Shown here one piece after another: positions 385 to 19,099 of a stretch of 19,099 nt of DNA. Where the stretch lies: the IMG/VR virus record IMGVR_UViG_3300031949_000413, positions 105,088 through 124,186 of that record; one strand, written 5' to 3'. The notes under the pieces are model-generated. The model was not told where the DNA came from, did not search any database, and saw only the letters and a list, made by a program, of their open reading frames with translations. The DNA comes from a virus (lineage: Duplodnaviria; Heunggongvirae; Uroviricota; Caudoviricetes). A program made the position numbers and the translations under genes. Numbering within the stretch: position 1 is the first letter of the stretch; each line of letters begins with the position of its first letter.

Positions 385-393
385 AGATGTCTC

Positions 394-1371
394 CTATCCT
401 ACAACAATCTTCTGTCGCCCAGTTTGGGGCTGCTCGGAGGCCATGAGGCGATTCGTGCCCGATTTGTCCTCTGGAGCTTGCTTCGCGGTGGCGGCTCGCA
501 CCAATAGGTCGATAGTCGTCTCCGGTAATGCCAATAGTTCGTCTTGGCGCGTCTCGAACTCGCTGGCTTCCATTACGTTGCCAACTAGCTTAGCCTTCAA
601 CTGTCCAACCTTATGTGCCTTGACTTCACCACGTGCTGACTGCAAAGCTGTTTCAAGTGTGGTGACTCGTGCTTCCAAGTCAGTCACTTTGGCCTGAAGG
701 GTAGTCTTAGCCGTCTGCTCGTTGGCAAGATCGGCATTGCGCGCCTCAAGATCAGATGCCAACCTGGTCATATCGGCCTTCATCTTGGCATACTCGGCCT
801 GACCATCGGCCTCGTTCTCTTTCTTTTCCGCGTCAGGAGTTTCTTTCTTGTCCTCATTCATCTCGTCATGCTTCTTCTTCATCTCGTCGTCGTCCATATT
901 GGTCTCCTTCGATGATTCAGACTTCGATTTCTTGTCGTCAGGTGTTTCCATTCCGGCGCTCTTGTAAGCCGACTTCAACTTGGCAAGAGCCTTCTCTTTG
1001 TCTGGGCCTTCGTACTTATTGCCCCGATACCCACCGTGTAGAGCCGCCCACGCCCCACCCAATAGGTGTGAATCAACTTTGCCTTCGGTATTCTTGTAGC
1101 GCAGATGCCAAGTAGTGGGTTTTTGCGGGTCTTCCACTACAAGGTAGTGGGAACTGGGATGATTACCATCACCCTCCGACTTGGTGACAGTTGCCTCAAT
1201 CTCATTGTCATCCATAGCCATTTTTTCCTTGTAAAACGCTAAAGCATCTGGCGCGAGTTGATCTACCCAAGCCATAATCAGGCTAGATTTAGTGGAAACA
1301 ATATCCATACTCTGTCCACCAGAAATATGAGCCCATGCAGACTTGATCTCGTCAACCAAAAACTCGCTCAT
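394..1371 (-). CDS. Putative capsid scaffolding protein
   Basis: 325 aa with an AGGA SD. Has an acidic/Lys low-complexity linker and a long C-terminal coiled coil (AEYAKMKADMTRLASDLEARNADL...LETALQ). Lies downstream of the protease-like gene. Confidence 0.65.
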   Translation of the reverse strand: MSEFLVDEIKSAWAHISGGQSMDIVSTKSSLIMAWVDQLAPDALAFYKEKMAMDDNEIEATVTKSEGDGNHPSSHYLVVEDPQKPTTWHLRYKNTEGKVDSHLLGGAWAALHGGYRGNKYEGPDKEKALAKLKSAYKSAGMETPDDKKSKSESSKETNMDDDEMKKKHDEMNEDKKETPDAEKKENEADGQAEYAKMKADMTRLASDLEARNADLANEQTAKTTLQAKVTDLEARVTTLETALQSARGEVKAHKVGQLKAKLVGNVMEASEFETRQDELLALPETTIDLLVRAATAKQAPEDKSGTNRLMASEQPQTGRQKIVVG

Positions 1372-1383
1372 AAATATATCCTA

Positions 1384-1412
1384 TTGATACTTTGTATCAT
1401 CCATGTTATAAT
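1384..1412 (+). promoter_or_regulatory. Sigma70-type promoter with extended -10 driving the endonuclease, probably leaderless
   Basis: TTGATA (1384-1389), 17 bp spacer, TATAAT (1407-1412) preceded by TGn. ATG at 1419 is 7 nt after the -10, and there is no SD. Confidence 0.75.
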
Positions 1413-1418
1413 TACAAC

Positions 1419-2231
1419 ATGGGACGCCCTAAAGGTAGTAGAAACGGAATACGCCAAGCATTTGTTGTAACTTGTGCATCTTGTAAGAAAAAGTTCGAGA
1501 TAGACCCATATCGCTATCGGCTCGAAACTACAAAATGCTGCTCAAAGAAATGTCAGTCAATTTGGCACTCCAGGGGTATGCAGAAACCGACCCACAGAAT
1601 ATGCCCAGTATGTAATAAGGAATTTGTCACAAGACCATCCGATCAAAAAGTCTATTGCTCAATGCTATGTGCATCCAAAGTTCATGGCACTAAAATCACT
1701 GGGCTAAAGGTAGAGCGCATAGAAAAGATTTGCCCGATTTGCTCCAAAAGATTCACGTTCCGCCCAGCTGAAAACAGGTCTTTCTGCTCAAAAAGGTGTG
1801 CCAATAAAGCTCTAATCAAGCAACGCCTTCGACTTACTTGCCAGTGGTGTCATAACACATTCGACACCATGCACAAAGATCAGAAATACTGCTCAAAAAC
1901 CTGTAGGAATATAGCCCTACGCAACATCAAGTTTAGTAACATAGAACCCGGCATGGCATCTGCCCTGTATGACGCTGGAATAAGATTTGAATCTCAATAT
2001 CCATATTTCCATTACATCATGGACTTCGCAATCCCAGATAGGAAGGTGTCTATAGAATGCGACGGAAACTATTGGCACTCTTTCCCGGAAGCCATTGTGA
2101 GAGACAAGAAAAGGGACACTTATCTCAAAAGACACGGCTGGACAGTTTTAAGATTCAGTGAAACAGAAATATACAAAGACATCAACTCTTGTATTGCTCG
2201 CATATCCGGGCAACTAGCGAGTTCATCTTAG
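1419..2231 (+). CDS. Free-standing homing-endonuclease-like protein: four CxxC...CSxxC Zn-finger repeats plus C-terminal DUF559/Vsr-like PD-(D/E)xK nuclease
   Basis: Repeats CASC..CCSKKC, CPVC..YCSMLC, CPIC..FCSKRC and CQWC..YCSKTC. Nuclease motif MDFAIPDRKVSIECDGNYWH...RDKKRDTYLKRHGWTVLRF. Start moved from 1392 to 1419 because 1392 lies inside the promoter. Confidence 0.8.
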   Translation: MGRPKGSRNGIRQAFVVTCASCKKKFEIDPYRYRLETTKCCSKKCQSIWHSRGMQKPTHRICPVCNKEFVTRPSDQKVYCSMLCASKVHGTKITGLKVERIEKICPICSKRFTFRPAENRSFCSKRCANKALIKQRLRLTCQWCHNTFDTMHKDQKYCSKTCRNIALRNIKFSNIEPGMASALYDAGIRFESQYPYFHYIMDFAIPDRKVSIECDGNYWHSFPEAIVRDKKRDTYLKRHGWTVLRFSETEIYKDINSCIARISGQLASSS

Positions 2232-3036
2232 CGTCACCACTTGCCATAGTCTCTATCTCCTCCTGGTGACTGGCGACAAACATGATGGTGGATAAATTGA
2301 AGGATGTCTCACTACCCGCCGGGCTAAGTGTTACCGCCCCGCCAACCGCTCGCAAACCTCGTAAGATGCGCTTTGCACCATGCAGGACTTTAGCCTTTAG
2401 GTGCTGGCAATAAGACTTGGCATCCGTATGGACTGCGTGACAAATCGAGCACTCGGCTGTGGACGCTTCTGCTTCAATGGACAGTTTGTAGCGACCACTC
2501 TCAATATCGTTCGGGTCAATGCCTAACTTGGCACAGCGATCCGTCCACACCACCCCGTCCACTTTAAGAACACCGTCATCGTTCTTACCGGCAGTGTAGA
2601 AACCAATATTCTTGGTGTCGTTGTGTTCGATGTCAATAGCTGTAGCTGAAATAGTGGCCGCTAACTCAGAGATACCGTCATTGTCCAACTCGTCCAGATT
2701 GGCATTCGTCTCAGCCCGCGCCAGCACTGCATCATGGAAGCGCAGAAAACGCGGATTGTCAGTATCGGCCTCAAAATGGACTGAGCCTAACACTAACTCG
2801 GTTGAGGCGATAACTTCGTTGACTTCTGTCACAGTCTCTTCCTCTGAGGCAGTGGCCTTCTCTGACTTAGGCTCATGCACGTATAATGCACGAAGATAAG
2901 GAAGAGCAGCCTGACGGGACTTATAAGGCTCTTTGTTCTTCTTATCGACCTTATTGCCCTTGTCGTCAACTTTGAATACGTACCAGCCATCAGACTCATG
3001 AACTATCTGGTACTTAGCTTCCAACTCGTTTGCCAT
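2182..3036 (-). CDS. Putative prohead protease / head maturation protein
   Basis: AGGT SD before ATG 3036 (track start is GTG 3042). Contains IDIEH, LSIEA..CSIC....C.H and GGAVTLSPA motifs reminiscent of phage prohead proteases. First gene of the head module. Confidence 0.6.
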   Translation of the reverse strand: MANELEAKYQIVHESDGWYVFKVDDKGNKVDKKNKEPYKSRQAALPYLRALYVHEPKSEKATASEEETVTEVNEVIASTELVLGSVHFEADTDNPRFLRFHDAVLARAETNANLDELDNDGISELAATISATAIDIEHNDTKNIGFYTAGKNDDGVLKVDGVVWTDRCAKLGIDPNDIESGRYKLSIEAEASTAECSICHAVHTDAKSYCQHLKAKVLHGAKRILRGLRAVGGAVTLSPAGSETSFNLSTIMFVASHQEEIETMASGDAKMNSLVARICEQYKS

Positions 3037-3049
3037 GTCCACTACCTGT

Positions 3050-3087
3050 AACGAAAAGAGGACAGACCTTTGCCAGTCTGTCCTCTT
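3050..3087 (-). terminator. Intrinsic-terminator-like hairpin in the leader of the head operon
   Basis: Perfect 12-bp stem AAGAGGACAGAC / GTCTGTCCTCTT (3056-3087) with an 8-nt loop, followed by TTCGTT on the minus strand. Confidence 0.7.
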
Positions 3088-3110
3088 ATACGATGCCCTA
3101 TCTATGCTAC

Positions 3111-3139
3111 ATAATACGCTGATGTTTCGCGTTTGTCAA
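3111..3139 (-). promoter_or_regulatory. Near-consensus sigma70 promoter upstream of the head operon
   Basis: Minus strand TTGACA (3139-3134), N17, TATTAT (3116-3111). Confidence 0.8.
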
Positions 3140-3236
3140 TAATGAGTTTTATGGTGTTTCAATCACCAAATTTCAGTATGGCTGTGGACTGTTTATAGTC
3201 AACTCTTGTCCCAAAACTGCCGAATTGGGATATATT

Positions 3237-3923
3237 TTAGCCAAAATTCTCAACGACCTTCATGGGTGAGTTTGCAACCAGTGTTACCCGGTGTCCACTT
3301 GATAGTGTGACATACACATTGTATTGGTAATCGCCAACAGACATTGCGCCCGTTTGGGCCGCTGTTGGCTCAGCGCGCACCTTCTTGGATGTTCCTGTAG
3401 GTGTCACCACTGAGCCTGATACAGAGAATGACACTTCACGAGTTAGCCGACTACCAGCAAAGATAACGCTACCGCTGGTTAGTTCCGGCCACTCACCCGT
3501 CGTGTCTGTCCAGTCCAACGAATGACTATCAGCCGCCGAATAGTCGTCACCTCTCACAAGTGTAACTATATTAGAAACTGCTTGTACAGGAGATACCACT
3601 GTAACACCTCCACTACCATCAATGACTGAGGCGCGAGTGCTCACTTTCGCATCCACATATTCAGACTCTTGTGGATTTATCGACACAAGTGTCAGAATGT
3701 CAGTTGAATCAGATAAACTATAGAATTTTACTGCACCCCGAAAGTCATTTGGGTATCCAGCATAATACCATAGATAATCCCCATTACTGCCAATCTCTAT
3801 GAACCCTGAGGATATTGTACTTCCGACACTCGATCCGCTGGTATCGACCAACTGTCCTCTCAGATCGGACAGATCAGCCTTACTTCGACCAAGAGCAAGA
3901 GATACCACAAGCTGATAAGTCAT
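3237..3923 (-). CDS. Putative virion structural protein with C-terminal Ig-like (BppU-like) domain
   Basis: 228 aa, beta-rich. LVRGDDY...GDYQYNVYVTLSSG pattern resembles baseplate/Ig-like adaptor domains. Abuts the tailspike stop. Confidence 0.5.
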   Translation of the reverse strand: MTYQLVVSLALGRSKADLSDLRGQLVDTSGSSVGSTISSGFIEIGSNGDYLWYYAGYPNDFRGAVKFYSLSDSTDILTLVSINPQESEYVDAKVSTRASVIDGSGGVTVVSPVQAVSNIVTLVRGDDYSAADSHSLDWTDTTGEWPELTSGSVIFAGSRLTREVSFSVSGSVVTPTGTSKKVRAEPTAAQTGAMSVGDYQYNVYVTLSSGHRVTLVANSPMKVVENFG

Positions 3924-6074
3924 TCACTCTGCTCTCCATAAAAAGTGCATTGCGGTTTGTACCCAAACTTGATCGATCTTGGGCTGAGTCGTAGTCGATC
4001 CGGCCACAGATACCCGACTTCTGACCCAATATTTAGATATGCTATTGACACTCACTTTTCCCCAATCAGTAGGAATTGTAAATGTCACTGAATAAGTATC
4101 AGCCATTGCCGTATAACCAGATGTACCATCCGAAACATCCTGAAGGGTAGCCCAGCTAAACCCATTGTAATACTCCCATATCACCGTCCATGTCCCGACT
4201 CCCGCCGTACTGTACTTAATATCCATACCACCGAATGGTTCGCTCAAACCAATATAGAAAGCATCATTTAGCAATGCCGGATTATCCATTACCCAAACAT
4301 CATTAACTGTTGCATTGTTAGCAGCAGCAGTAAAGTCAGCATACACCGTCTCATAATAGAGAAATGCTACATCAACTGCGCCTATAATCTTGGAGACAGC
4401 AACAGGAATTTCAAGTCTAAATGTGCTCGATCCAATGTTTATTTGTGGCACAAAGAAATCCTTACCATCGGACTCTTGCGGAACAGTCTGAACTACATTG
4501 GGAATATTTGGCAAACCATGCGGCCAATCAACTGAAGTGTCAACTCCATTCCTAGAGATAGTGGCAATCCCTGAATTGTAGGTAATTGGATATAGTATCA
4601 ATGATTCAACTTCTAATATGTTGGTGCTAATCTCGAACCCCCAATTACCCACATTCAGTTTGTCAGAAGGCACAATAATGATATAGCTAACGACCTCCGT
4701 TTCGGTGGTGCTACTAATAGGTACATTATAATCTGTGATAACATTAGTAATACCACCCTCGTTATAATAAGCAACGAATACCCCACTTCCAGAAATCTTT
4801 CTGGCCGTAAGCTTGATAAGAAATATCCTATGCGCTCTATCAACAGGAGTAACAGACCATGTGATAGGTGTAAGATTAGTCTTGATGGCATAGCGTCCCG
4901 TGACTGGGCTGGCAACAAACGGTATACCATCACTAGATGCAGCACCGCCCAAATATGCAAAATTCTTGTAACTCAATGTGTATGGATCGTAAGTATTTGT
5001 CCTAACACCAGGCACATCGGGTGGAGTAATAATAGTGCTTACGTTATCGAAATTGCCCGTGTCGTTCTGATCCCACTCGGCCAATACTGGATGATGATTG
5101 TGCCAATTTGACGTTAGCACTTCAGGAATCTGAATAGACGTTCCGCTGATATTGTATTTATTGTTCCTCCATACCAGCCCATACATGGAATTTAGACTAA
5201 CAAAATTAGGAGTCAATCTATCTGTCAATTCAAACATATTCTCCATTACCTGCGCGTTGGTATCATTCTCCGATATGATATACGTTGCAGAATCAGCCGC
5301 AGTCTCGAAATAATTACTGTGTATTCTGAAATTATGAGAAGCACCGCCAAGAAAAACTCCTCCGACCCGCTGATTGTCTAACAGGTCATTGTGGCGTAAA
5401 AGATTTCGTCCGCCGAAATCGCATTGAACCCATCTGGCGCAATAGGCAATTCGATTCCCAAATGCTTCATTTACATCCGACCCCAAGTTAATGTTTCCGG
5501 TATAATAAACACCAACTCCATACCATGTTATCGAGCAATTCTCGATAATGGAATCAAAGACACGCCAAAATTTAACGCCTGCACCATATCCGTCTAATTC
5601 TTCTTGAGTAGGAACAACACCGGTGTGGCGATTAGAATCTACAGCGACATCATATCCACCACTCATATTAACATTACGAATAACCGGGCCAATACAGGAT
5701 ACCGAACCTGAAGATAATCCGATTTGAATTCCATTATTGGCTACAATGCTTAAACCATCAATGACGATCCCGCAATATGGATGCAGCGAGTCTGTTTCTG
5801 TGTACTGAAATACGAACTTACTGTTGTCAAGTTGATGAATAGATGAGCCGCCCCTGGATAGCCCGACTATCTTGACGTTCCTACCAAGAGTAACGGTATC
5901 AGATATGTTTATATTCTTAGGTATAATAATTGTTCCTCCGCCCCCTCCCAGTGAAGAAGCGTCGGAAACTGCTGATTGTAACGCGCTTGTATAGTCTGTT
6001 CCAGACGGACTATAATCAAGAAGGTTTATTGCGCCCACTAAATCAAGTGAGGTTGGTATTCTAATCGCTTGCAT
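3924..6074 (-). CDS. Tailspike/depolymerase-like protein with pectate-lyase-type parallel beta-helix and C-terminal beta-sandwich domains
   Basis: N-terminal DYTSALQSAV...GGGTIIIP...ISDTVTL..NVKIVG (Pectate_lyase_3-like start) followed by Asn-rich beta-helix rungs (IRNVNM, IENCSI, FGNRIA, IHSNYFE, VMENMF). Confidence 0.75.
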   Translation of the reverse strand: MQAIRIPTSLDLVGAINLLDYSPSGTDYTSALQSAVSDASSLGGGGGTIIIPKNINISDTVTLGRNVKIVGLSRGGSSIHQLDNSKFVFQYTETDSLHPYCGIVIDGLSIVANNGIQIGLSSGSVSCIGPVIRNVNMSGGYDVAVDSNRHTGVVPTQEELDGYGAGVKFWRVFDSIIENCSITWYGVGVYYTGNINLGSDVNEAFGNRIAYCARWVQCDFGGRNLLRHNDLLDNQRVGGVFLGGASHNFRIHSNYFETAADSATYIISENDTNAQVMENMFELTDRLTPNFVSLNSMYGLVWRNNKYNISGTSIQIPEVLTSNWHNHHPVLAEWDQNDTGNFDNVSTIITPPDVPGVRTNTYDPYTLSYKNFAYLGGAASSDGIPFVASPVTGRYAIKTNLTPITWSVTPVDRAHRIFLIKLTARKISGSGVFVAYYNEGGITNVITDYNVPISSTTETEVVSYIIIVPSDKLNVGNWGFEISTNILEVESLILYPITYNSGIATISRNGVDTSVDWPHGLPNIPNVVQTVPQESDGKDFFVPQINIGSSTFRLEIPVAVSKIIGAVDVAFLYYETVYADFTAAANNATVNDVWVMDNPALLNDAFYIGLSEPFGGMDIKYSTAGVGTWTVIWEYYNGFSWATLQDVSDGTSGYTAMADTYSVTFTIPTDWGKVSVNSISKYWVRSRVSVAGSTTTQPKIDQVWVQTAMHFLWRAE

Positions 6075-6075
6075 A

Positions 6076-6816
6076 TTAGACAGTCGCCATCTGCAAAACT
6101 TGCGCGGGGGTTAGTTCTGTGTTCCATAGAGCAATATGTTGTAATAACCCAGAAAGAACGAGAGCAGGAGTTACATTTGCAGCGCCCAAGAGTGTGGTAT
6201 TAGTAGGCCAAGTTCCACCCCATATTCCGAGGCCGGTAACATCTGCTCCTATCTGAGAACCGTTTTTGAATCCTCTAAAACGATTGTTCGATTTGGAAAC
6301 AGTCATAGCAAAATGTAAGAATGTTGTTCCAGAATTTCCAGTGGAATCAACAGCAAGTGCTGTCCCTCCTGCGGTGTATGTAAATCTCATAAGGCCAGCA
6401 ACCCCAGGATTAGTAAATTGAAATAAGTCTATTCCAGAAGAAACAAATTGTATCATTCTGCAATTGGCACTCCAATTAGAATTACTCAACCACCCCATCA
6501 AGGTAAATTCTGAAGCGTTGATCGCTGATGCTAGAGAGGCACTCCAAACATTTATATAGCTCGATGTTCCATTAAAACCCGCTGCCGTTAATCCATCTCC
6601 GATTCCCGATGATCCAAATGTTATATTTGTTGGTGTTCCGGTTTTTCCATTTCCGCTATAATCCAGCACACTTCCAGTCCCGGTTGTTCCTACTTGTTCG
6701 TTAAGACGCCAGTAAGCAACCAGGTTTGTTGGCGCAATACCAAATACCCTCGATGAGTAGTCGCTACCCGCAAGACTACTTAGTCCAGATAGGCCGCTTA
6801 GCCCGCTAAGACCCAT
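6076..6816 (-). CDS. LamG / concanavalin-A-like lectin domain protein (virion-associated)
   Basis: LVAYWRLNE...DYSGNGKTGT...GFNGTSSYI...FTLMGW...LHFAMT...GLLQHIALWNTELTPAQV is the Laminin_G_3 pattern. N-terminal (GLS)x4 repeat. Confidence 0.85.
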   Translation of the reverse strand: MGLSGLSGLSGLSSLAGSDYSSRVFGIAPTNLVAYWRLNEQVGTTGTGSVLDYSGNGKTGTPTNITFGSSGIGDGLTAAGFNGTSSYINVWSASLASAINASEFTLMGWLSNSNWSANCRMIQFVSSGIDLFQFTNPGVAGLMRFTYTAGGTALAVDSTGNSGTTFLHFAMTVSKSNNRFRGFKNGSQIGADVTGLGIWGGTWPTNTTLLGAANVTPALVLSGLLQHIALWNTELTPAQVLQMATV

Positions 6817-8345: not shown

Positions 8346-8547
8346 CGCTCACCTCCACAGCATCGGCTTTGAACTCCCCACAGAAGCCGGTTTTTTCCAC
8401 AATAGGCCACATACCGAAGTAACGGCCATATTTCGAGTAAACGACCGGGTACTTCTTATGGCAGTAGCCTTGACTTTTAGGTAAACCGACCAGCGACTCA
8501 TGCTGGTTGTCGTACCATGTGCATTTCCCGCACAGAAATGAGATCAT
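8329..8547 (-). CDS. Small Cys-rich putative Zn-binding protein (72 aa)
   Basis: GGAG SD 7 nt before ATG 8547. Motif CGKC..Y...GYCHKKYP...WPIV....FCGEF has four Cys. Confidence 0.6.
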   Translation of the reverse strand: MISFLCGKCTWYDNQHESLVGLPKSQGYCHKKYPVVYSKYGRYFGMWPIVEKTGFCGEFKADAVEVSGGMPK

Positions 8548-10228
8548 TTGATGACTCCACAACTTTGTCCAATTTCCTTCGATCTTCATCTGTCCAGCCA
8601 GGTATGGGCCAGAACTTGTCTATCAACCACGCGAGCGGCCTAACCTGTCCAGGAAAACTTCCATTAAAGAATGTCTCCCGCGCCTTGCTTTTTGCGTGTT
8701 CGACCTGCTGCCCAGATATGGGGTAAGGAAATCCAAAGTCAAAACCTTGCGTGCGAAAGCAGTGTGCATACCACGTTTTCTGATTACACATCACCCTTCC
8801 GCCCGATAACCATGTGCGACAAGCAACTTCTATGCCTTGACTTCCCCATGAGCCAAACGACTCATCACACACATTCAATTCCCAATACTTATCGCGTGTC
8901 AACATCCAACACGATCCCTGAAGCGACATGGTTTCTGTCAATTTCCCCTTGCCTTCTGGCCGCTTACTGAACTCTCTAAAATAGCGGAAATGGGGTTCGG
9001 AGTCAAAGCAGTATGCTTTGCTTTGTGGATTGTTTTTAGCAATCCACACAATGTCCATTATAGTCTCTTTCCCGCAAACTGTACATAATCCGCTTGGGCC
9101 TTGATAACGCCTGTGTCCATCAGGGCAAACCCAATCGAAAACATGAAGATTGCACATGATCGGCACAGTCGTCCAGTCATCCTGCATATCGGCCATCATC
9201 TTCACATCAAACCCCTGATCAAAGGCACAGTGGGCATCAACCTTCATCACATATTTAGCCGTAGACATTCTGGCCGCCATGTTCGTTGCCGCTCGCTGCC
9301 CGATACTCTCGGCTAGTTCCACTACTCGCACTCGTTGGTGTTCTTGTATAGGCGGATTGGCAGGCGCACCATCCAATACCACGATAGCCTCAGTGGACTC
9401 TCCGCTATGCTCAAGTATGTCTTGAACCGTTCTTGCTACGAACTGCTCATTGCGCGCTGGAATAAGCACGCTCAGTTCGACCGGCTTTGGTTTAGCCTTG
9501 TGCCGGTATATTGGCACATCAACCTTCTGGCCGTCCTTTAATGGAAAGAACCGTTCAATCGTCTTGGGTAAATCCGGCCAGCCTGGTATGTGCGTCACGT
9601 CCGACTCTTCCCAGAACTTAGGTTTCCTGATGAACTTTTCGGTAGACCATCGCTTCGGCGTCAAATTGCCACCATGACACAAATCCACATTCGGCGCAGA
9701 TGGATAGAATTTCTCGAACTTGTACCAATGTTCCCACTTAATGCGATGATGTGTGAAAGGCTCGAAGCCGAGAACCATGCCAAATCCATGTTGTGATACC
9801 CAATCCAATCTTTCCTTAAAATGAATAACCGCAGGCTCACGATAAACGACCAAGCCCGACAATGGACTGACATCATAGTGAACCGCAAAACCATCCGTCA
9901 TTCTCAAGAACCAATAATTGCCGTTGTAGTAGTAAGTCTCCGGATCGGGCGGCACGAACTTGAAATGTTCGGATGAATATAAAACATCATGCTCCGCGAA
10001 GTAGACCACATCCTCAGTCATGGCCTCCAAACCGGTAAGTATCTGCCGATACATCGTCTTGTAGCTACGCTCGCCCTGCACCACAATGTTTCGGCCAAAG
10101 TTAGTCGGCTTGAGTGTGACACTGGTAATAGGTAGCCCTGACTGCTCAATGTACTTCTTACAGGCCAGCGACATTCTGATATTCAGAGCATTGTCACTGA
10201 AGTACAGGATCGCCTTTTGCCCGCTCAT
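8498..10228 (-). CDS. Two-domain glycosyltransferase: N-terminal GT-A-like domain plus C-terminal GT2/GT27 (ppGalNAc-T)-like domain
   Basis: N domain has VYFAEHDVLY. C domain has LSVLIPARNE, IVVLDG, KVDAHC, and WGSQGIEVACRTWLSGG...YAHCFR. Confidence 0.85.
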   Translation of the reverse strand: MSGQKAILYFSDNALNIRMSLACKKYIEQSGLPITSVTLKPTNFGRNIVVQGERSYKTMYRQILTGLEAMTEDVVYFAEHDVLYSSEHFKFVPPDPETYYYNGNYWFLRMTDGFAVHYDVSPLSGLVVYREPAVIHFKERLDWVSQHGFGMVLGFEPFTHHRIKWEHWYKFEKFYPSAPNVDLCHGGNLTPKRWSTEKFIRKPKFWEESDVTHIPGWPDLPKTIERFFPLKDGQKVDVPIYRHKAKPKPVELSVLIPARNEQFVARTVQDILEHSGESTEAIVVLDGAPANPPIQEHQRVRVVELAESIGQRAATNMAARMSTAKYVMKVDAHCAFDQGFDVKMMADMQDDWTTVPIMCNLHVFDWVCPDGHRRYQGPSGLCTVCGKETIMDIVWIAKNNPQSKAYCFDSEPHFRYFREFSKRPEGKGKLTETMSLQGSCWMLTRDKYWELNVCDESFGSWGSQGIEVACRTWLSGGRVMCNQKTWYAHCFRTQGFDFGFPYPISGQQVEHAKSKARETFFNGSFPGQVRPLAWLIDKFWPIPGWTDEDRRKLDKVVESSNDLISVREMHMVRQPA

Positions 10229-10980
10229 GAGGCATCTCCATTAAAATGTTTTATCCAATAATCCCTATTGCCATTTGTTTTCATGTGACAGCTTCTGCAA
10301 AGAGTTATCAGATTGATCGGATTACAATTTTTCTTATCGTAATCAATATGATGGCAATGTAATATGTGTCCCGCCTCATCTTGGCGTATACCACATTCTT
10401 GACAAGTATAATCGTCTCTTTCTCTGATGCTTCTCCTTAACGTACTTGTCCAGTCGCCAGGATACAGATCAAATGATACTCCGCCTCTCCATAGGTTACT
10501 TTTATTTCCTAGCCTAATTGTTAATGGTGGCCTGAGTCCCCTTCTCTTACAGGTCTCACTTATCTTCCTTTTTGCCTCGTTCGATAATGTTGTCCCCCTC
10601 TTGGGAGATGGCATCCCACGATTCGCCTCATGCGCCTTCTTAACGGCCTCCCTAGAGGCCAACATGGATTTTGTGCTGTTCTTTTTGCCTACACTTATCT
10701 TATCTCCCCAAGTAACTTTTTTCCCTGCCAAGAATCCTTTCATTCCCTTATTCCAAGCAGTATGTCCCATATGTGATCTGCTCAGATTCTTTCTGTGTTC
10801 TTCTGTAATTTTTCTGCCGCGCACAGATTCGACTAGCTTTCTTTTCTGGTACTCTGTTAATTTTCGTCCTTTGTGAGCTTCGCCTATTCTCCTTTTGTGT
10901 TCCTCGCTCAGACTCTTTCCCTTATGAGCCTCGCTCAACTTCCTCTTGTGTTCTTCTGTAAGATGTGAACCCTTACGCAT
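10225..10980 (-). CDS. NUMOD3-repeat HNH homing endonuclease
   Basis: Repeated (L/I)(S/T)EEHK(R/K)K(L/I)SEAHKG units. C-terminal IRERDDYTCQECG...HCHHIDYDKKNCNPINLITLCRSCH. Confidence 0.9.
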   Translation of the reverse strand: MRKGSHLTEEHKRKLSEAHKGKSLSEEHKRRIGEAHKGRKLTEYQKRKLVESVRGRKITEEHRKNLSRSHMGHTAWNKGMKGFLAGKKVTWGDKISVGKKNSTKSMLASREAVKKAHEANRGMPSPKRGTTLSNEAKRKISETCKRRGLRPPLTIRLGNKSNLWRGGVSFDLYPGDWTSTLRRSIRERDDYTCQECGIRQDEAGHILHCHHIDYDKKNCNPINLITLCRSCHMKTNGNRDYWIKHFNGDAS

Positions 10981-11716
10981 ATTCCTCTCCTTTATAGCTC
11001 ACTTCTTCGCGCTGGTGCAGGTTGTGAAACAGCCCCTTCGGGTTCAAATTTCCGTCCCGATGGAAGCGGCCAGTAGGAAACATATAGATAGCCGAACCTG
11101 TCGCAAGATGGATACCATTCCGATTGGCGTATCTGCCCCACTTCGTGTTGAAGTAGCAGTCATCGCCACGCCGACTAACAGGGTGGTAGCCCACTAAGCT
11201 ATACTTCGGATCGTAGCCCCCCAGTTGCTCAAAAGTAGATTTTCTAATGGTGAACGTGTTCTTGTGAACACCTGCGTATAGGCCAAACTTCTTTAAGCGA
11301 TTCTCATCAAAGCCATAGACCTTCAGAACTTCTACATCTTGGCTCAAGTTCCCATCCTCAGTCAAAATCCCAAAGTATCGCTTGAACATCATCCGATCGC
11401 CCGTGAAGTGTCTAGTATCCTCAATGGCCTCACGCGAGAGAATGTGATCGATGTCTGTCATTAGCAGGTACTCGCCCTGTGCTTTAATGGCTCCCAAGTT
11501 CCGCCCTAACCCCTGTGTCCATGCCAACATATTTCCTGTAGGGTATATGCTCAGGTTGTTCAATTTATAGTCTTCTCTCCTGAGAGGTGGATTGCTGCCA
11601 TCGTCAACTACTATGAACTCTACATCATCGGGCAGGCGCATCTTGTTAAAATACTTCACCTGTCGGGCCAACGCGCCGTGACTCTGATAGATCGATATGA
11701 TGACTGATGCCTTCAT
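10973..11716 (-). CDS. Glycosyltransferase family 2 (with GT7-C-like GGYD segment)
   Basis: ASVIISIY, FIVVDDGS, GRNLGAIKAQGEYLLMTDID, FEQLGGYDP. Confidence 0.9.
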   Translation of the reverse strand: MKASVIISIYQSHGALARQVKYFNKMRLPDDVEFIVVDDGSNPPLRREDYKLNNLSIYPTGNMLAWTQGLGRNLGAIKAQGEYLLMTDIDHILSREAIEDTRHFTGDRMMFKRYFGILTEDGNLSQDVEVLKVYGFDENRLKKFGLYAGVHKNTFTIRKSTFEQLGGYDPKYSLVGYHPVSRRGDDCYFNTKWGRYANRNGIHLATGSAIYMFPTGRFHRDGNLNPKGLFHNLHQREEVSYKGEEYA

Positions 11717-12210
11717 TGCCAGTTACTCACATCCTTAAAGTTACTCACCACTGACGTATTGGGCCGTAGTTTAGTGTAGTCGTATCTGTACTTGAACAGC
11801 CCCCACGTCTTATCAAACGCATACCGATCATTCTGGTCTGGTTCAGTATCATGGATAACGATATAGTCAGCAAGGTTTGCCAACCGCGCTACCTCTTTGG
11901 GCCTGCGCCAGCCCGGAGAATGATCAATAAATACTAACCCCCACCGCCGCTGGTCAAAGTTGGCGCTATTCCAATCCTTACAGAGTATAATGTGGTGATA
12001 TTCGCTCTCGAATTGCAATGCCTTAGCATACCAACCATCTCGGCTCTCGTAAGAGTAGACATGCCGCTTGGAAATCGTCGCCAGCCAGTGCAATAGTGTT
12101 GTGGAGAAATAGCCCGTTCCCACTTCCAGCACATCTCCCTCAGAAATATCAAATACTCTTGCCAATAGTGGAATATGTGTCGCCACTGATTCCTTGCCAT
12201 GCTTAGGCAT
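11713..12210 (-). CDS. Class I SAM-dependent methyltransferase-like protein
   Basis: VLEVGTGYFST (motif I), VYSYE, LVFIDH, YIVIHDT. Start placed at ATG 12210 (8-bp overlap with the GT stop) rather than 12345. Confidence 0.75.
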   Translation of the reverse strand: MPKHGKESVATHIPLLARVFDISEGDVLEVGTGYFSTTLLHWLATISKRHVYSYESRDGWYAKALQFESEYHHIILCKDWNSANFDQRRWGLVFIDHSPGWRRPKEVARLANLADYIVIHDTEPDQNDRYAFDKTWGLFKYRYDYTKLRPNTSVVSNFKDVSNWQ

Positions 12211-13066
12211 AAAGTTTACTCTTCCAGTCAGCAGGCCAGCCGGGTAGAGGCCAAAACTGTTCAATAGTTCTGATAAATAGGTCTTTGTTTTCATGAACCG
12301 CCAGATCATAAGAGTAGGCATTACAATCTCTGATACTTTGTACACTCATAAAGTACATCCTTCCATACTTATTACCTTTGTGTAAATGAGCATACCAAGT
12401 GTCCTTATTGGTTATTATCCTGCCTCCATCTCTCCAAACTTTGAGCGCGATAGATTCCGCTTCTTGTCCCCAGCCGGAATAGCCTTCTATCTGCATCAGC
12501 CCCAAATGCTTAAAATAGTCTCGCGTCATTAGCCAGCAACTACCCTGAAAGTGCAGGGTACTATCGACCAACACATTCTGTCTAGCCAATGTACGCGCAT
12601 CCCACTTGAATCCATGCAGGGCTGGCCTGTCAAACTTTAGCGGCCACATCGTATACTCGTAATCAATGGGTGGCCGATTATCTACCTGTGTCTGTAAGCA
12701 CCAGCTCTCGGCATCCAAACGCTGCCTTCTAGGTATCTGAACCCAGTCATCTTGGTGAACACTAATCAGCTTCTCATCGAAGCCCACATCCATCATGCAA
12801 TGAGCATCTAGCGACATCAGATACTTGCCCTGCCCTATATGGGCTACGTGATTGATAGCATGTCGCTTCTTGGTATAGGACGTTGGCTCGAAGCGAATGT
12901 AGTGAACTCTAGGATCATCGACAATCTCGCTTACTGGCGGTTCGTAGCCATCAAGTACAGGGTAGACCTCAATGTTGCCCGTTGCCTTAGCAAGAACATC
13001 TCGGATGGTCTTCTCTAGGAATATCTCGCTCTTACTGGGTATGACAATATCCAAAGATTTACCCAT
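12203..13066 (-). CDS. GT2/GT27 (ppGalNAc-T)-like glycosyltransferase
   Basis: [35 protein letters not shown]...WYAH. Start overlaps the mucin-like gene stop by 8 bp. Confidence 0.85.
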
Positions 13067-16000
13067 TGACGATCAATCCTCCACCGATAAGGCTATGAAC
13101 ACCATTGGCACTGATAATGACTCTGGCTATGAAGCCACCTGATGGCGATGGGCTTGGACTGGCGGACGCGCTTGGACTAGCCGATGCACTAGGCGAAACA
13201 GACGCACTCGGACTGGCGCTTGGACTCTCAGAAGCCGAAGGGCTATACGACGGTGAAGCACTGGCACTAGGGCTTACTGAAGGCGAAATACTGGCGCTCG
13301 GACTTACGGATGCTGACGGTGAAAGGCTAGGACTGACACTAGCTGATGGTGACACGCTAGGCGAAACAGAAGCAGACGGAGATAGAGAAGCCGAAGGCGA
13401 CAGGCTGGGTGATTCTGATGCACTTGGGCTTAAACTCGCACTAGGCGACAAGGACACTGACTCACTAATCCCTGCACTTGGACTGACTGACGCTGACGGC
13501 GATAAGCTGGCAGACGGACTAACCGATGGTGACACAGATGCCGATGGACTTACAGACGCACTTGGCGATAATGATGGCGAAACTGACACAGAAGGAGACA
13601 TACTCGCTGATGGACTCAGGCTAGGGCTGACACTCGTACTGGGCGACAACGATGCCGATGGGCTAATTGAAGGCGATATGGAAGCCGATGGAGAAACCGA
13701 TGCCGATGGTGATAGCGAAGGACTCTCGCTAGCTGACGGTGACAATGAGGCCGATGGACTTAACGATGGACTAATGCTGGCGCTCGGAGATAACGAAGGC
13801 GACTCTGAGGCGCTAGGTGACAAGCTGGCACTTGGCGAAAGACTTGGACTAATTGACGCGCTAGGGCTCAAAGAGGCTGATGGACTCAATGATGGCGATA
13901 TAGATGCTGATGGGCTTAAAGATGCACTTGGGCTAACACTAGGAGAGATACTAACACTAGGCGAAATACTCGCACTTGGGCTCAGGCTAGGCGATACGCT
14001 GGTACTTGGTGAAACCGATGCCGAAGGACTAACAGATGGCGATTCACTGGCGCTTGGACTAAGCGAAGCGGACGGCGAAATGCTAGGACTTACTGATGCG
14101 CTTGGCGAAAGACTTGGACTAACACTAGCACTGGGACTGATTGAGGCGCTCGGAGATACCGAAGGACTCTCGCTAGCTGACGGACTTAAACTTGGCGAGT
14201 TGCCCGCCGAAGGACTCACTGAAGCACTTGGAGATAAGCTCGGACTCACTGAAGCCGATGGGCTAAGACTTGCGCTCGGACTCTGTGAGGCCGATGGACT
14301 AGCACTAGGACTCTCGGATGCTGATGGTGAAATACTTGCCGATGGCGAAACACTAGGACTCTCACTGGCCGATGGTGATAAGCTGGCGCTAGGGCTGAGG
14401 CTCGGTGATTCACTAGCGGACGGTGAGAGAGACGGACTTTCCGATACTGAGGGTGACAAGCTTGGGCTAATAGAAGCTGACGGACTCAAGCTTGCACTTG
14501 GGCTCAGGGAAGGAGATTCGCTCGCTGATGGTGACAAAGATGCAGACGGAGAAACCGATGGTGATTCGGACGCACTTGGAGAAATGCTTGGACTTTCGGA
14601 AGCACTAGGACTTAATGAAGGAGACTCTGATGCACTAGGCGATAAACTCGCGGAAGGCGATAATGATGGTGACTCCGATGCGCTCGGTGATAGACTGGCG
14701 CTGGGGCTTAAACTTGGTGAAACACTTGCACTTGGGCTAATAGATGCGGAAGGCGATAAGCTAGGTGACACTGATGCTGACGGCGATAACGACGCCGATG
14801 GACTTAGACTTGGCGACTCTGAGGCAGAAGGGCTTAACGACGCACTGGGACTCAACGACGGCGACACCGAAGATGAAGGGCTGAGACTTGCTGATGGGCT
14901 AACGCTTGGTGATACACTGGCCGAAGGCGACAGACTGGGACTTATACTAGCCGAAGGACTCAAGCTGGCGCTGGGCGACAAGCTTGGAGATTCACTAGCT
15001 GATGGAGATATAGATGCCGAAGGTGATAGTGATGGCGACACGCTCGCGCTCGGTGATAACGACGCACTAGGCGATAGGGATGGACTCTCTGATGCTGAAG
15101 GTGACAGGCTAGGGCTTATACTGGCGCTAGGCGACAAGGAAGCCGATGGCGACAATGATGGACTCTCAGAGGCCGATGGGCTTACACTTGCGCTAGGGCT
15201 TAATGAAGGAGAGATACTTGCAGATGGCGATAAGCTCGCGCTCGGTGATAGAGATGGACTAATACTAGCAGACGGACTCAGACTCGCTGACGGGCTGATA
15301 GATGGTGATACACTCGCGCTTGGAGACAGTGACGCCGAAGGAGAAACCGATGGCGACTCACTGGCCGATGGGCTGAGACTAGCCGATGGCGAAACGCTCG
15401 GACTTTCAGATGATGAAGGAGATATGCTCGCTGACGGACTCAGACTGGGCGACTGGCTGGCGCTTGGACTTAAGCTAGCACTAGGACTCAGGCTAGGACT
15501 GACACTACTGGACGGCGATACAGACGGGCTGGAGCTGGCACTTGGCGATATAGACGCACTTGGACTGACACTCGCTGAAGGCGAGACGCTGGGACTGACA
15601 GACGACGATGGACTGACACTGGAACTGCTGGCCGCCACCATATCGTCATAAGTCAAACCGTTGCCACCACCGTAAACAATCCCCCGCTCATCGGCAGATA
15701 TTACACGCCCCCATAGCATGATCGGGCCAATGCGACCATCCATCGTGTTATCTGCGCCACCATCATATCCGACCCGAACAATGTTTGTGCCAATGGCATG
15801 TGTCGAGCCAGCAACGGGTGTCTCCTCCGTGCCACCATCTACCTGCATGTGCAAAGTGTTGTCAGTAGCCGTGTACCAGACAATCACAAACTTCCATACA
15901 TTATTGGGAGTACCTTGTACAGCACTATGCTGGGTATCGTATCCGCCACCGCCATATCCCATCTGGAAGAAAATCTGATTGGCCCCGTTCAGGCCAACTG

Positions 16001-17387
16001 TGATACCACCATCATAGCCTACCTGATGCCACAGATAGTGATACATATTCGGTGAAGCACCGGGTGGCGTGTTGTACTGATAATACCAAATTGCCATCGT
16101 AAAATCAGCATCACCGAAACGAACATCATCATTGTCACGGGTAAAACCTTCAGTGGTTAAAACTGTAAATTCACGCGCCGTGGCATAGACCTTGCCTGTG
16201 TTAGCACCCACGGTGCCATCTTGCGTCATCGTCTTTGAGGCGTGTACACCCAGCATATTCCCGTTGGCTTCATCCATCGGCCAGTAATCAGCCAGCCCAA
16301 AGGCCAGATCGCCTGGCCCAAGTGATGGACTAACACTAGCTGATGGCGATAGCGATGGGCTAATGCTTACGCTTGGTGAAAGGCTTGCACTTGGACTCAG
16401 TGACGGCGATACTGAAGCACTCGGACTCAACGAGGCCGAGGGTGATAATGATGGACTTACGGAAGCCGATGGGCTAAGACTTGCGCTCGGTGACAAACTT
16501 GGCGATACCGATGCAGACGGCGACAAGCTGGCCGATGGTGAGACTGATGGGCTAACCGACACACTAGGACTGACACTCGCTGAAGGCGATAGCGAAGGAC
16601 TGACACTCGCACTGGGCGACAAACTCGCAGAAGGAGAAATGCTTGCACTCGGACTCAAGGAAGGTGAAACCGATGCACTGGGGCTGATAGATGCCGATGG
16701 CGACAAGCTGGGTGATACTGAAGCTGAAGGCGAACGCGAAGCACTGGGGCTGAGTGATGGACTTACACTGGCCGATGGGGAACGCGATGCACTTGGACTA
16801 ACCGAGGCCGAAGGCGATAACGACGGGCTAACCGATGAGCTGCCTGCCACTGCCCCAATATCAAGGTTATAGAACGACCCGCTCCATGTGAAGCCCAGCC
16901 CGCCCCATGCAATAGAAATATAATCACTAGCCTGCGTATAGTTGACAGTACCACTTGTGGAAAGTAAATTAGTGTGACCAGCATCAGAATAGGCATAAAC
17001 TGTAACGTCGCCGTTCGCAACGCGCACAATTTTCAGGTAGTAGCGGGTACTGGCGGAGAAAGAACCGAAGCCGGAGTAACCCCCGTTCTTCTCCAGATAG
17101 AGCATTCCATCGCCGGGCCACCAGTAAACACACAGTCCATCTGAAGCTAACTGACTGTAATCCCAATCGTCAGTATCGCTAATCGCCCAAATACCAGCAG
17201 CCACATCAATACTGAAATCAATGTAGTGCGTAAACGTGCCACTGAAATAGTTTGTCCCATAAAGCTTATCGACGCTCGCGCCTTCATTGTATACGACGCT
17301 CGCACCCGTGATCGTATTCGCAGCAACCGTCAAATGGCTCTGCGGATCATTCTCGTCCCATCCAATCGTAAAATTCTCGAAAGCCAT
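13059..17387 (-). CDS. Giant mucin-like Ser/Pro-repeat protein: beta-sandwich N domain, SP repeat 1, LamG domain, SP repeat 2, short hydrophobic C tail
   Basis: 1442 aa. LamG pattern LADYWPMDE...FTMAIW...WKFVIVWY...[19 protein letters not shown]. About 1000 aa of SPSASX/SPSX repeats. No signal peptide. Confidence 0.85.
13140..15629 (-). repeat. Coding tandem repeat block 2 (about 830 aa of SPSAS[VLIE]/SPS[LVI])
   Basis: Read directly from the translation; the DNA is degenerate at synonymous positions. Confidence 0.95.
16321..16841 (-). repeat. Coding tandem repeat block 1 (about 174 aa Ser/Pro repeats)
   Basis: Read directly from the translation. Confidence 0.95.
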
Positions 17388-17395
17388 ATTATCTC

Positions 17396-18439
17396 TTAGG
17401 GCAGGTCATCCCATGGCACGCCCCACGTGCGATCACCGGAGCCCTGGCCCAATAGCATGTTGAGGTCTTGTTGCAAGTAGCTTCTCGTCGTCATGAACCA
17501 TTGAATAAACTGATCCCACTGCGCTTGGTTTAGCTGCGCCGTGTAGGGGAAGATGGACTTGACCCGATTAGGCAACACCACTATCTCGCCACGTGATTCC
17601 CCGATCCGCGAATCGGCTACACCAGTGTCATATTCAGCTTGTGAAATACCCTCGCGGAACCACAGCCCCATGATGTTGTGAATCAGGCGCAGGCGCTCGA
17701 CGTAGGAAATCAGATACCGCCAACGCGCTTCACTCGTGATGCAGTCAGATGGGTAAGTCAGCTGTAGGGCAGTACCCGCCTCAACAAAGGCGATCAGCGT
17801 AGACATTGGATTAGTATTCGTCCAGCCTGATGCGTTCGCTACTTCACGACTTACCGTAGCAATGCGTACAGCCACTTCACTGGCAATAGACGTACCCGTG
17901 CCTGTACGTAAATCGAACAATTCACTGTAGCCAGCAGGCGGTGTCTTGGCATTATCCGTTCCCTCTGCACCCGCATGGTAAATCAATAGGTACTCTCGGC
18001 TCGGCATTCCATAAATATAGCTTGTCAACGTGCTGAAGCCCGCGCCGATCTCTTGATTATAGACACGACCCACACTACTCGTCACCTCAAAGCACATGAT
18101 TATCTTGCACAAAATATTGGCCGACACGGTGAGCGTAATCGTATTAGAGGTCGTAATCTGTGTACCAACCCGGCAAGCCCATGTCGAGACCGTCACGCCA
18201 TCGCCCGCTACCCCATCGCTCTCCGTCAGCTCAATAATCTTAATCCAGTTATTGGCCGAGCTGTCAGTCACCGACACATGGTTGGCGCTCACACCACGCA
18301 CCGCAGCAAGATTGTCGGTAGTACAATTGACAACAAGTATCTTGCCTACCGTCAGGGTGGCAGTCGGATTCATAGCGATGGTGGTCGAACTGACTTCGTG
18401 GGTTAGGCTTCCACGTGCTGTAACAGCCGAAAATGTCAT
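17396..18439 (-). CDS. Hypothetical virion-associated protein (beta-rich N domain, helical C domain)
   Basis: 347 aa, TAGGAG SD. Thr/Val/Ser-rich beta N-terminal ~220 aa. First gene of the coupled operon. Confidence 0.6.
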
Positions 18440-18559: not shown

Positions 18560-19030
18560 CTACTTTAGTTGTAAATCCAACAAGAATGCACTGCCTGCTA
18601 ACTCTAGCGCCGCTATGAATCGTTCAGACTCGGTGACTTCCAGAACTTGCTCCAAGCACATATCCTGTAGAAACGTCTGCGCGCCATAGTCGCCCTCTTG
18701 CATGGCGGTGTCCATGATGATGTTGATCTCGTCTGTTGTAGCCTGCTCCAGCTCCAAACGAGCCACAGCAATGGTGTGGCAATCAGCATAATCACTACTG
18801 ACCGCCATAACCGCAGGAACTTCCATTGGCGCGTTGGCTTCATTGAGATAGCCTAAAAACTTTAATGCGTGGCCGTGTTCGTCATCGGCCTGTAGGGAAA
18901 GGTGCTTAAAGATGTTGGCTAGGCCATGTCGTGCCGACCAATCAGCCATACACCGATAGGCCAACTCGTTATGATATTCACGAGCGACTTGGGCATTGAA
19001 CATTCGGACTAGTTCAGGTGACATCTGCAT
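18560..19030 (-). CDS. ftn: Non-heme ferritin
   Basis: FNAQVAREY, QADDEHGHALKFLGYL, LELEQ, TFLQDMCLEQVLE match the FtnA-type four-helix bundle. GGAG SD 8 nt before ATG 19030. Confidence 0.85.
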   Translation of the reverse strand: MQMSPELVRMFNAQVAREYHNELAYRCMADWSARHGLANIFKHLSLQADDEHGHALKFLGYLNEANAPMEVPAVMAVSSDYADCHTIAVARLELEQATTDEINIIMDTAMQEGDYGAQTFLQDMCLEQVLEVTESERFIAALELAGSAFLLDLQLK

Positions 19031-19099
19031 GGGCGGTACTCCATTCCAATTCACGAGCGACTTGGGCATTGAACATTCGGACTAGTTCAGGTGACATCT
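18976..19099. repeat. Exact 51-bp direct repeat (18976-19026 and 19049-19099; period 73 bp; second copy cut by window end)
   Basis: ATTCACGAGCGACTTGGGCATTGAACATTCGGACTAGTTCAGGTGACATCT occurs twice, 22 bp apart. Confidence 0.95.

Follow-up and report, generated by a model that had tools for sequence, protein, structure and literature searches.

GT287, a predicted glycosyltransferase (GT) of 287 amino acids (aa), is encoded in a 19,099-nucleotide (nt) stretch of DNA from a virus of the Caudoviricetes (positions 105,088 to 124,186 of the IMG/VR record IMGVR_UViG_3300031949_000413). We refer to this whole stretch as the window. GT287 resembles the catalytic domain of the polypeptide N-acetylgalactosaminyltransferases (GalNAc-Ts; family GT27). 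From sequence comparison, structure models and analogy with characterized enzymes, we consider it rather probable that GT287 and the gene cassette around it O-glycosylate the Ser residues of the SxSPS repeats in a protein encoded immediately upstream. The gene and its motifs are located as follows.

12203..13066, minus strand: GT287, a single ATG-started open reading frame (ORF) of 287 aa; predicted soluble GT-A glycosyltransferase of the DxH (GT27/GT60-like) type
12797..12811, minus strand: LDAHC, DxH metal-binding motif (D87, H89), residues 86-90, aligned to LDAHC of GalNAc-T1
12500..12517, minus strand: YFKHLG motif of GT287, residues 184-189
12422..12472, minus strand: WG..E..GG segment, counterpart of the Gal/GalNAc-T motif (Glyco_transf_7C region), residues 199-215
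12386..12397, minus strand: WYAH, with the C-terminal His (H227) of a putative Mn2+ triad, residues 224-227

A preliminary description of this DNA had listed LDAHC, YFKHLG, WG..E..GG and WYAH in this order; all were found in the 287-aa ORF and are conserved in its family. HMMER aligned LDAHC of GT287 to LDAHC of GalNAc-T1, with D87-x-H89 corresponding to D209-x-H211, and the WG..E..GG segment to WGGENLEISFRIWQCGG of GalNAc-T1. H227 was paired with the His of GHVF in GalNAc-T4. The pattern W-G-x-E-x-x-E...GG is retained in GT287, with GGEN changed to GQEA. In a 32-sequence alignment of the GT287 family, H89, C90, G198, G200, E202, E204, G214, G215 and H227 are invariant, D87, W199 and W224 are conserved in at least 90% of the sequences, and the segment WYAHLHKG, which includes H227, is invariant or nearly so. 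The motifs stand above chance because they are conserved across this alignment. The alignment also holds an invariant or near-invariant insert, PRRxRLD...RPPIDYE...HGFKWD, which is not known to correspond to any published motif.

A word-indexed search of 5.8 billion proteins gave 864 homologues of GT287 at E <= 1e-3, and the best 120 of these are 56-72% identical to it over the full length. Among 1.84 billion cluster representatives searched exhaustively with HMMER, 718 clusters matched at E <= 1e-3 and 176 at E <= 1e-30. Many members of the family come from Patescibacteria genomes and from phage contigs. GT287 starts at the first beta-strand and ends about 60 residues past the C-terminal His, and it thus comprises the catalytic domain only. 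As the preliminary description had stated, there is no ricin lectin domain; the alignments are confined to the catalytic domains of GalNAc-Ts. No stem, membrane anchor or hydrophobic segment was detected in GT287 (maximum KD19 0.56).

Pfam detected Glycos_transf_2 (PF00535) in GT287 (E 3.7e-10, 40.4 bits), a domain that is also carried by GalNAc-T catalytic domains and does not discriminate them from GT2 enzymes. Glyco_transf_7C (PF02709) fell below the threshold in GT287 (E 0.12) and was matched by 26 of the 32 family members at E <= 1, the best at 3.4e-4. PF11397, the GT60 'GlcNAc' model, gave no match in GT287 at E <= 10 or in the 32 relatives at E <= 1. PHROGs and NCBIfam returned no family for GT287, and tblastn against 50,697 GenBank phage records returned no match. 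When the single GT287 sequence was compared with the PDB, polypeptide GalNAc-Ts were the only sequences at E < 1e-2 (best 1.5e-4). The family profile matched GalNAc-Ts at E 1.4e-5 to 1e-3 over profile positions 5-244, and its match to GT2 structures (3bcv, SpsA and GalT1) was confined to the first ~100 positions.

An AlphaFold2 model of GT287, built on the family alignment, had a mean predicted local distance difference test score (pLDDT) of 89.5 and a predicted template modelling score (pTM) of 0.90. Foldseek with this model ranked GalNAc-Ts as the top 50 of 50 PDB matches and the top 30 of 30 Swiss-Prot matches, with template modelling (TM) scores against GalNAc-Ts of 0.62-0.72 over residues 3-286. 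An exhaustive structural search independent of Foldseek (VIA) gave Z 23.0 for GalNAc-T1, with 263 residues aligned at a root-mean-square deviation (rmsd) of 3.3, and Z 22.2 for GalNAc-T3 of Toxoplasma (TgGalNAc-T3). The best matches other than GalNAc-Ts in this search were the chondroitin polymerase K4CP (Z 17.6) and SpsA (17.3), with other GT2-type enzymes at 17 or less; the GT2 enzymes covered, all at Z <= 17.6, included TarP, TarS and cellulose synthase. As an internal control, domain X of a 576-aa protein of the same cassette was folded likewise, and it placed GalNAc-T1 at rank 28 with Z 10.9. The preliminary description had assigned a GT27-like signature to the gene and had named clustering with ordinary polysaccharide GT2s as the outcome that would speak against it. 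No such clustering appeared in the structural comparison, and the signature is borne out by both structural searches.

In AlphaFold DB, the fold clusters nearest to GT287 were those of a 1181-aa protein (E 1.5e-23) and a 650-aa protein (E 3.6e-23), which, going by their accession series, we take to be from candidate-phyla metagenomes. Eukaryotic GALNT-like clusters came after these two. The 1181-aa protein is named as carrying a homing endonuclease domain of the DOD type, possibly an intein. Phage proteins annotated as 'Glycosyltransferase, GlcNAc' were present among the viral fold neighbours of GT287 and among its Atlas neighbours. No GT60 chain was found among the listed structural matches, and the comparison with GT60 is thus indirect.

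DxH in place of DxD is confined to GT27 and GT60, which have polypeptide Ser/Thr O-glycosylation in common (PMC7185993, Taujale et al.). In the same study, GT27 and GT60 grouped with GT7 and with the GalNAc-T domain of chondroitin polymerases as a single clade, and GT60 is known from prokaryotes and protists (PMC7185993). The position of K4CP as the first non-GT27 structural match of GT287 agrees with this clade. GT287 has a GT-A fold nearest to the solved GalNAc-Ts, and its DxH and distal His are aligned with the Mn2+ triad; the ricin-type lectin domain and the type II membrane and stem region of GT27 are missing. The GT287 family also has the character of GT60, a lectin-less DxH GT-A enzyme in prokaryotes, without the match to PF11397. 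It departs from GT2 in having DxH instead of DxD and in its closest structural kinship, which is with the GalNAc-Ts; these lead the GT2 structures by at least 5 Z units. Because the fold, DxH and C-terminal His are present and the lectin domain, stem and anchor are absent, we assign GT287 as a probable GT27/GT60-lineage enzyme resembling the GalNAc-T catalytic domain and do not file it as a GT27 member. The preliminary description had called this chemistry eukaryote-like, which was overstated: DxH defines GT60 together with GT27, GT60 occurs in prokaryotes (PMC7185993), and the GT287 family itself is abundant in Patescibacteria and phage contigs.

The genes that form the cassette with GT287 are listed below.

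13059..17387, minus strand: SxSPS-repeat protein, 1442 aa, presumed acceptor; from translation, with Laminin_G_3 at 4.2e-12
11713..12210, minus strand: probable S-adenosylmethionine (SAM)-dependent methyltransferase, 165 aa; VLEVGTG motif-I-like sequence and Atlas neighbours
10973..11716, minus strand: GT2 glycosyltransferase, 247 aa, TarS/TarP-like; Glyco_tranf_2_2 at 9.6e-10, Glycos_transf_2 at 1.2e-6
10225..10980, minus strand: HNH/NUMOD3 homing endonuclease; PHROG HNH endonuclease at 8e-17, NUMOD3 at 1.4e-10
8498..10228, minus strand: 576-aa fused enzyme, domain X (residues 1-230) followed by a GT27-like paralogue of GT287 (residues ~250-553)

The start codon of GT287 and the stop codon of the repeat gene overlap by 8 nt (ATGGGTAA), which upheld the direct coupling of the two genes noted earlier. 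The stop codon of GT287 and the ATG of the methyltransferase gene likewise overlap by 8 nt (ATGCCTAA), and three further junctions of the cassette are overlaps of 4-8 nt.

The repeat protein consists of an N-terminal globular domain (residues 1-182), a repeat block (183-356), a ConA/LamG-like domain (357-586), a second repeat block (587-1416) and a 26-residue tail. The repeat blocks contain 508 Ser, 188 Pro and 2 Thr in 1004 residues, and SPSL and SPSAS[LVEI] are the commonest words. GalNAc-Ts favour acceptor sites with Pro at -1, +1 and +3, and for each Ser of SxSPS one of these positions is occupied by Pro. No signal peptide or transmembrane segment was found in the repeat protein of the window. 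In related loci, the N-terminal domains of the repeat proteins vary and signal peptides are lacking; several of these proteins end in sequences that resemble phage tail-fibre C-termini. The C-terminal tail after the repeats (13062-13139, minus strand) is conserved in the repeat protein of locus L012 (L012:3821-7981) and may be an attachment or assembly element. The repeat gene also carries a long antisense open frame (13105-15651, plus strand, 848 aa). In a public Kaiserbacteria record, antisense ORFs were annotated by the gene caller in place of the SxSPS protein (L001:15054-16856).

We examined whether GT287 relatives and SxSPS repeats occur together. Loci with a GT287 relative were obtained from IMG/VR (31), from GTDB species genomes (22) and by exact-protein look-ups, and 55 loci were scored. 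Open frames with at least five S.SPS words were scanned in six frames, with flanks of 10 kb. An SxSPS-repeat ORF was present in 32 of the 55 loci and always lay on the strand of the GT. In about 20 loci the gap to the cassette was no more than 50 bp, either from the end of the fused GT gene to the start of the repeat ORF or from the end of the repeat ORF to the start of GT287. The control DNA, 125 kb in total, comprised four unrelated viral loci together with the remainder of this phage genome, and no SxSPS-repeat ORF was found in it. As seeds for control loci, a phage DNA methyltransferase gave none and an endolysin gave four. When tblastn was seeded with the repeat sequence, only two loci were recovered, as the low-complexity query was masked. 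In most loci, the paralogue (fused GT) directly adjoins the repeat gene; GT287 does so in the window, L009, L012, L021 and L054. The pairing also occurs in cellular DNA: on a 455-kb Parcubacteria contig (L001/L065), recG, lemA, a peptidase-M48 gene, tatC and tatA come first, then the cassette, and after it the gene of an SxSPS protein of 908 aa; in a near-identical record, antisense ORFs stand in place of this protein. The conservation of this synteny supports a functional link between GT287 and the Ser repeats.

In cellular Patescibacteria loci, the cassette is closely preceded by tatC and tatA (L001:5927-7108) or by tatA (L004:5280-5483), and the glycoprotein could conceivably be connected with Tat export.

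The paralogue domain is 29% identical to GT287 over the whole domain and retains DAHC and WYAH. It has a Cys-rich insertion, CPDGH...CxxC. Its PDB matches are almost all GalNAc-Ts, with GalNAc-T1 at E 2.6e-7, compared with 1.5e-4 for GT287, and its match to PF11397 (E 0.012) is below the cut-off. Almost every locus of sufficient length to span both genes has the paralogue together with GT287. Domain X was modelled with a pLDDT of 92.6 and gave a flat list of GT-A and nucleotidyltransferase matches at Z ~12.5, which suggests a GT-A/nucleotidyltransferase-fold domain. In the fused protein of the window, domain X precedes the paralogue; the order is reversed in the Kaiserbacteria protein (L001:12709-14460) and in most other loci. 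The two domains of the Kaiserbacteria protein are 63% and 52% identical to those of the window protein.

Among the other members of the cassette, the 247-aa GT2 matched TarS (5e-4) and TarP (0.03) in the PDB search and has homologues in 13 related loci. It is probably a glycan-extending enzyme. The start of the methyltransferase gene was placed at the ATG at 12208-12210, since a start at 12345 would make the ORF (210 aa) too long; in Atlas, the sequence is present from residue 46 of the 210-aa ORF, and the nearest clusters are of the 'methyltransferase family', with scores of 0.97-0.98. No Pfam, NCBIfam or PHROG family was matched by the 165/210-aa ORF, and BLASTP found no similarity between it and the Methyltransf_24 protein that takes its place in the Kaiserbacteria locus. 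We treat its assignment as a methyltransferase as a lead only. The HNH/NUMOD3 gene, with a homologue in just two related loci, is a selfish passenger inserted in the cassette and stands outside its chemistry. Together with the DOD-type domain of the nearest AlphaFold DB neighbour, this insertion gives the impression that the GT genes of the cassette attract selfish endonucleases. No transmembrane or hydrophobic segment, flippase or polyprenyl-phosphate enzyme was detected among the cassette proteins.

On these grounds we propose the following mechanism. GT287 would act in the cytoplasm as a soluble, metal-dependent GT-A enzyme of the DxH lineage, made up of the catalytic domain only. By analogy with GT27 and GT60, D87, H89 and H227 would coordinate Mn2+, and the Mn2+ would bind a uridine diphosphate (UDP)-sugar, most likely UDP-N-acetylhexosamine (UDP-HexNAc). 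The sugar would then be passed, with retention and in the cytoplasm, to Ser hydroxyls of the unfolded SxSPS repeats. GT287 would work with a constant partner, the second GT27-like domain in the fused 576-aa protein. Extension and capping of the glycan would fall to the TarS-like GT2, the remaining transferase domains and the methyltransferase, and the repeat protein would be glycosylated before its assembly or export. The comparisons show the motifs, the fold, the specific kinship with GalNAc-Ts, the coupling of the genes and the conservation of their synteny; acceptor, donor, stereochemistry and the choice of paralogue for the first sugar-peptide bond are inferred, and a HexNAc donor is suggested by the relatives alone.

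Several observations weigh against this reading. The identity of GT287 to GalNAc-Ts is just 16-22%, and the sequence E-values are modest (1e-4 to 1e-5). Glycos_transf_2 is its sole Pfam assignment, with Glyco_transf_7C sub-threshold (E 0.12), and the WGGEN motif reads WGQEA. No SxSPS ORF was found within the fetched flanks of 23 of the 55 loci, many of which are shortened or have cassettes that exceed the flank; a few of the loci without one, such as L016 and L053, do extend beyond the fused GT. Conversely, the SxSPS contig L066 (11.9 kb) has no GT homologue. The GT-A fold does not reveal the acceptor, and related GT2-CHS and GT7 enzymes use sugar acceptors. The paralogue, moreover, is at least as GalNAc-T-like as GT287.

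The last point leads to another division of labour, in which the paralogue in the 576-aa protein initiates and GT287 fills in neighbouring Ser residues on the glycopeptide or adds a second sugar. The greater closeness of the paralogue to GalNAc-T1 (2.6e-7 vs 1.5e-4), the direct contact of its gene with the repeat gene in most loci and the presence of both paralogues in virtually every locus long enough would all fit this. However, GT287 is the gene that abuts the repeat gene in the window and the four loci named above, and it is aligned over its full length with the GalNAc-T catalytic domain at Z 23. We regard initiation by the paralogue as a lesser but real possibility. Because the two co-occur in virtually every long-enough locus, genomics cannot separate their roles. 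The two might divide the work as peptide-preferring and glycopeptide-preferring GalNAc-T isoforms do, although this is speculative. Of the earlier proposal that GT287 is the initiating transferase for the Ser repeats, the link to the repeats was retained (32 of 55 loci vs none in 125 kb of control DNA), and the initiating role may belong either to GT287 or to the co-occurring paralogue, which matches GalNAc-T1 slightly better.

A cassette that makes or modifies a non-protein glycan, such as a cell-wall polymer, a teichoic-acid-like polymer or an exopolysaccharide, appears improbable to us. Its genes would then be auxiliary genes acting on the host surface, and their adjacency to the repeats would be incidental. 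One cassette member is TarS/TarP-like, and TarS and TarP glycosylate teichoic acid; surveys have read ConA-like lectin and sugar genes of Patescibacteria phages as host-surface modification (PMC12911398), and GT-A folds related to GT27 (K4CP and GT7) take sugar acceptors (PMC7185993). Against this stand the recurrent, tight, same-strand linkage to SxSPS ORFs, which was not seen in the controls, and the specificity of DxH for two polypeptide-glycosylating families. The cassette proteins are also all soluble, with no membrane-bound or lipid-carrier enzyme, flippase or polymerase among them. It is highly improbable that GT287 acts on something else, for example phage DNA bases or a small molecule. 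DNA glycosylation is common among phages, and this genome has several DNA methyltransferases, but the same cassette lies beside the same repeat proteins in cellular Patescibacteria loci, and it contains no hydroxymethylase or base-modifying gene. O-glycosylation of the SxSPS repeats by GT287 and its cassette is the reading that we favour.

The window is the last 19 kb of the 124,186-bp record, which has 103-bp direct terminal repeats and is rated 100% complete. The genome encodes a 1388-aa tape-measure-like protein (PhageMin_Tail, 2.2e-13), a protein matching endolysins, and homing endonucleases. The Pfam models Terminase_6N and HK97 capsid gave no match in the genome. The tape-measure and endolysin matches, together with the terminal repeats, identify the element as a tailed phage, in line with the preliminary description. 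The genes round the genome end had been considered as portal, protease and capsid genes; PHROGs instead show DNA methyltransferases and a transposase. At the opposite end of the phage genome, outside the window, positions 1-4284 contain two DNA methyltransferase genes and an IS-type transposase gene (phrog_506, 1.8e-114).

Cellular relatives of GT287 are often labelled as Patescibacteria (Kaiser-, Collier-, Zambryski- and Paceibacteria, and Saccharibacteria), and as many of them carry such labels, a host among these ultra-small bacteria of the candidate phyla radiation (CPR) is suggested for the phage. Some cassette contigs have metagenome-assembled genome (MAG) labels of Pseudomonadales, Methanosarcinales or Pacearchaeota (L045, L056, L046 and L054). 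The repeat ORF of L045 is that of L011, and L056 and L021 have the same ORFs and are both 46,218 bp long, so that L045 and L056 appear to be counterparts of viral contigs in IMG/VR. The contigs with unrelated MAG labels are probably mis-binned phage contigs.

Other genes of the window are listed below.

17396-18439, minus strand: 347-aa gene directly upstream of the repeat gene; no family match
18560-19069, minus strand: ferritin/Dps-like gene just upstream of the cassette; Ferritin at 6.6e-17
6076-6816, minus strand: second ConA/LamG-like protein, 246 aa, downstream of the cassette; Laminin_G_3 at 1.3e-7
1392-2231, plus strand: Vsr/DUF559/MTES_1575-type endonuclease with a zinc-finger-like N-terminus

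The Atlas model of the 347-aa protein is like beta-sandwich surface proteins of the Ig/fn3/TIG type (TM 0.53-0.58), which gives a weak lead to a virion surface protein. Among the plus-strand genes of the window, only that of the Vsr/DUF559/MTES_1575-type endonuclease has a clear assignment.

We compared GT287 and its cassette with known systems of protein O-glycosylation. GT27-initiated mucin-type O-glycosylation is treated as eukaryotic and Golgi-based. GT287 shares with the GalNAc-Ts (mouse T1, 1xhb and 8v9q; human T2, T4, T10 and T12; Drosophila PGANT9; Toxoplasma T3) the GT-A fold, the putative metal triad of DxH and C-terminal His and, in part, the Gal/GalNAc-T segment; the structural matches reach Z 22-23 over ~260 residues at an rmsd of 3.0-3.3. 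It is also genomically associated with a presumed acceptor of dense Ser/Pro repeats. It differs in its identity of 16-22%, in WGQEA for WGGEN, and in lacking the lectin domain, stem and anchor, which would place it in the cytoplasm and not in the Golgi lumen. Whereas GalNAc-Ts generally prefer Thr, the repeats here are almost free of Thr. With GT60 (the Skp1 hydroxyproline GlcNAc-transferase Gnt1 and the protist polypeptide alpha-GlcNAc-transferases), GT287 shares DxH, the absence of a lectin domain and a position beside GT27; it differs in that its family does not match PF11397, with the paralogue only sub-threshold.

The Ser-repeat glycoproteins known from bacteria are modified by unrelated GT-B enzymes. 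The Gram-positive Ser-rich-repeat systems, namely GspB/Fap1 with GtfA-GtfB and the SD-repeat proteins with SdgA/SdgB (PMC3794999), resemble the present cassette in having a cluster of soluble GTs beside a giant Ser-repeat protein. Several GTs act there in sequence in the cytoplasm, as we propose here, and the GT2-type GalT1 (5hea) of the Ser-rich-repeat pathway is a weak sequence and fold neighbour of GT287. In contrast, the initiators of those systems have a GT-B fold (GT4) and are not DxH GT-A enzymes, their repeats are SASx or SD and not SxSPS, and they use accessory-Sec export and an LPXTG anchor, whereas no signal peptide or anchor was seen here.

Virion glycosylation has been described for mycobacteriophage Che8 and its relatives (Freeman et al. 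2023, as cited in PMC12582341 and PMC11256854). The likeness lies in phage-encoded glycosyltransferases that act on the phage's own structural proteins. In those phages, the acceptors are reportedly short C-terminal extensions of capsid and tail-tube subunits, not kilo-residue Ser/Pro repeats, and a GT27-like kinship is said not to have been reported. To our knowledge, the mycobacteriophages provide the only well-studied cases of phage virion glycosylation. A full-text literature search on GT27/GT60 in phages and prokaryotes, virion O-glycosylation and GTs of CPR phages found no description of the GT287 family or of its pairing with SxSPS repeats.

Protein O-glycosylation by DxH GT-A enzymes is known; what appears to be new here is a minimal, soluble DxH GT-A enzyme of prokaryotes and phages tied to Ser-only repeats. 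A wider picture can be drawn, which we put forward tentatively and think unlikely to hold in full. The GT287 family would be a phage and prokaryotic sister lineage of the mucin-initiating GalNAc-Ts, in which paired lectin-less paralogues densely O-glycosylate SxSPS repeats and form mucin-like brushes on phages and CPR bacteria, and it may even mark the origin of mucin-type O-glycosylation. A large, conserved family of minimal GalNAc-T-like catalytic domains tied to Ser/Pro-repeat proteins would itself offer a soluble and simple system in which to model the catalytic core of GT27. It would point to heavily glycosylated fibres or coats on phages that have not been cultured and on episymbiotic bacteria, with consequences for adhesion and host recognition, and it would bear on the evolutionary origin of GT27 and GT60.

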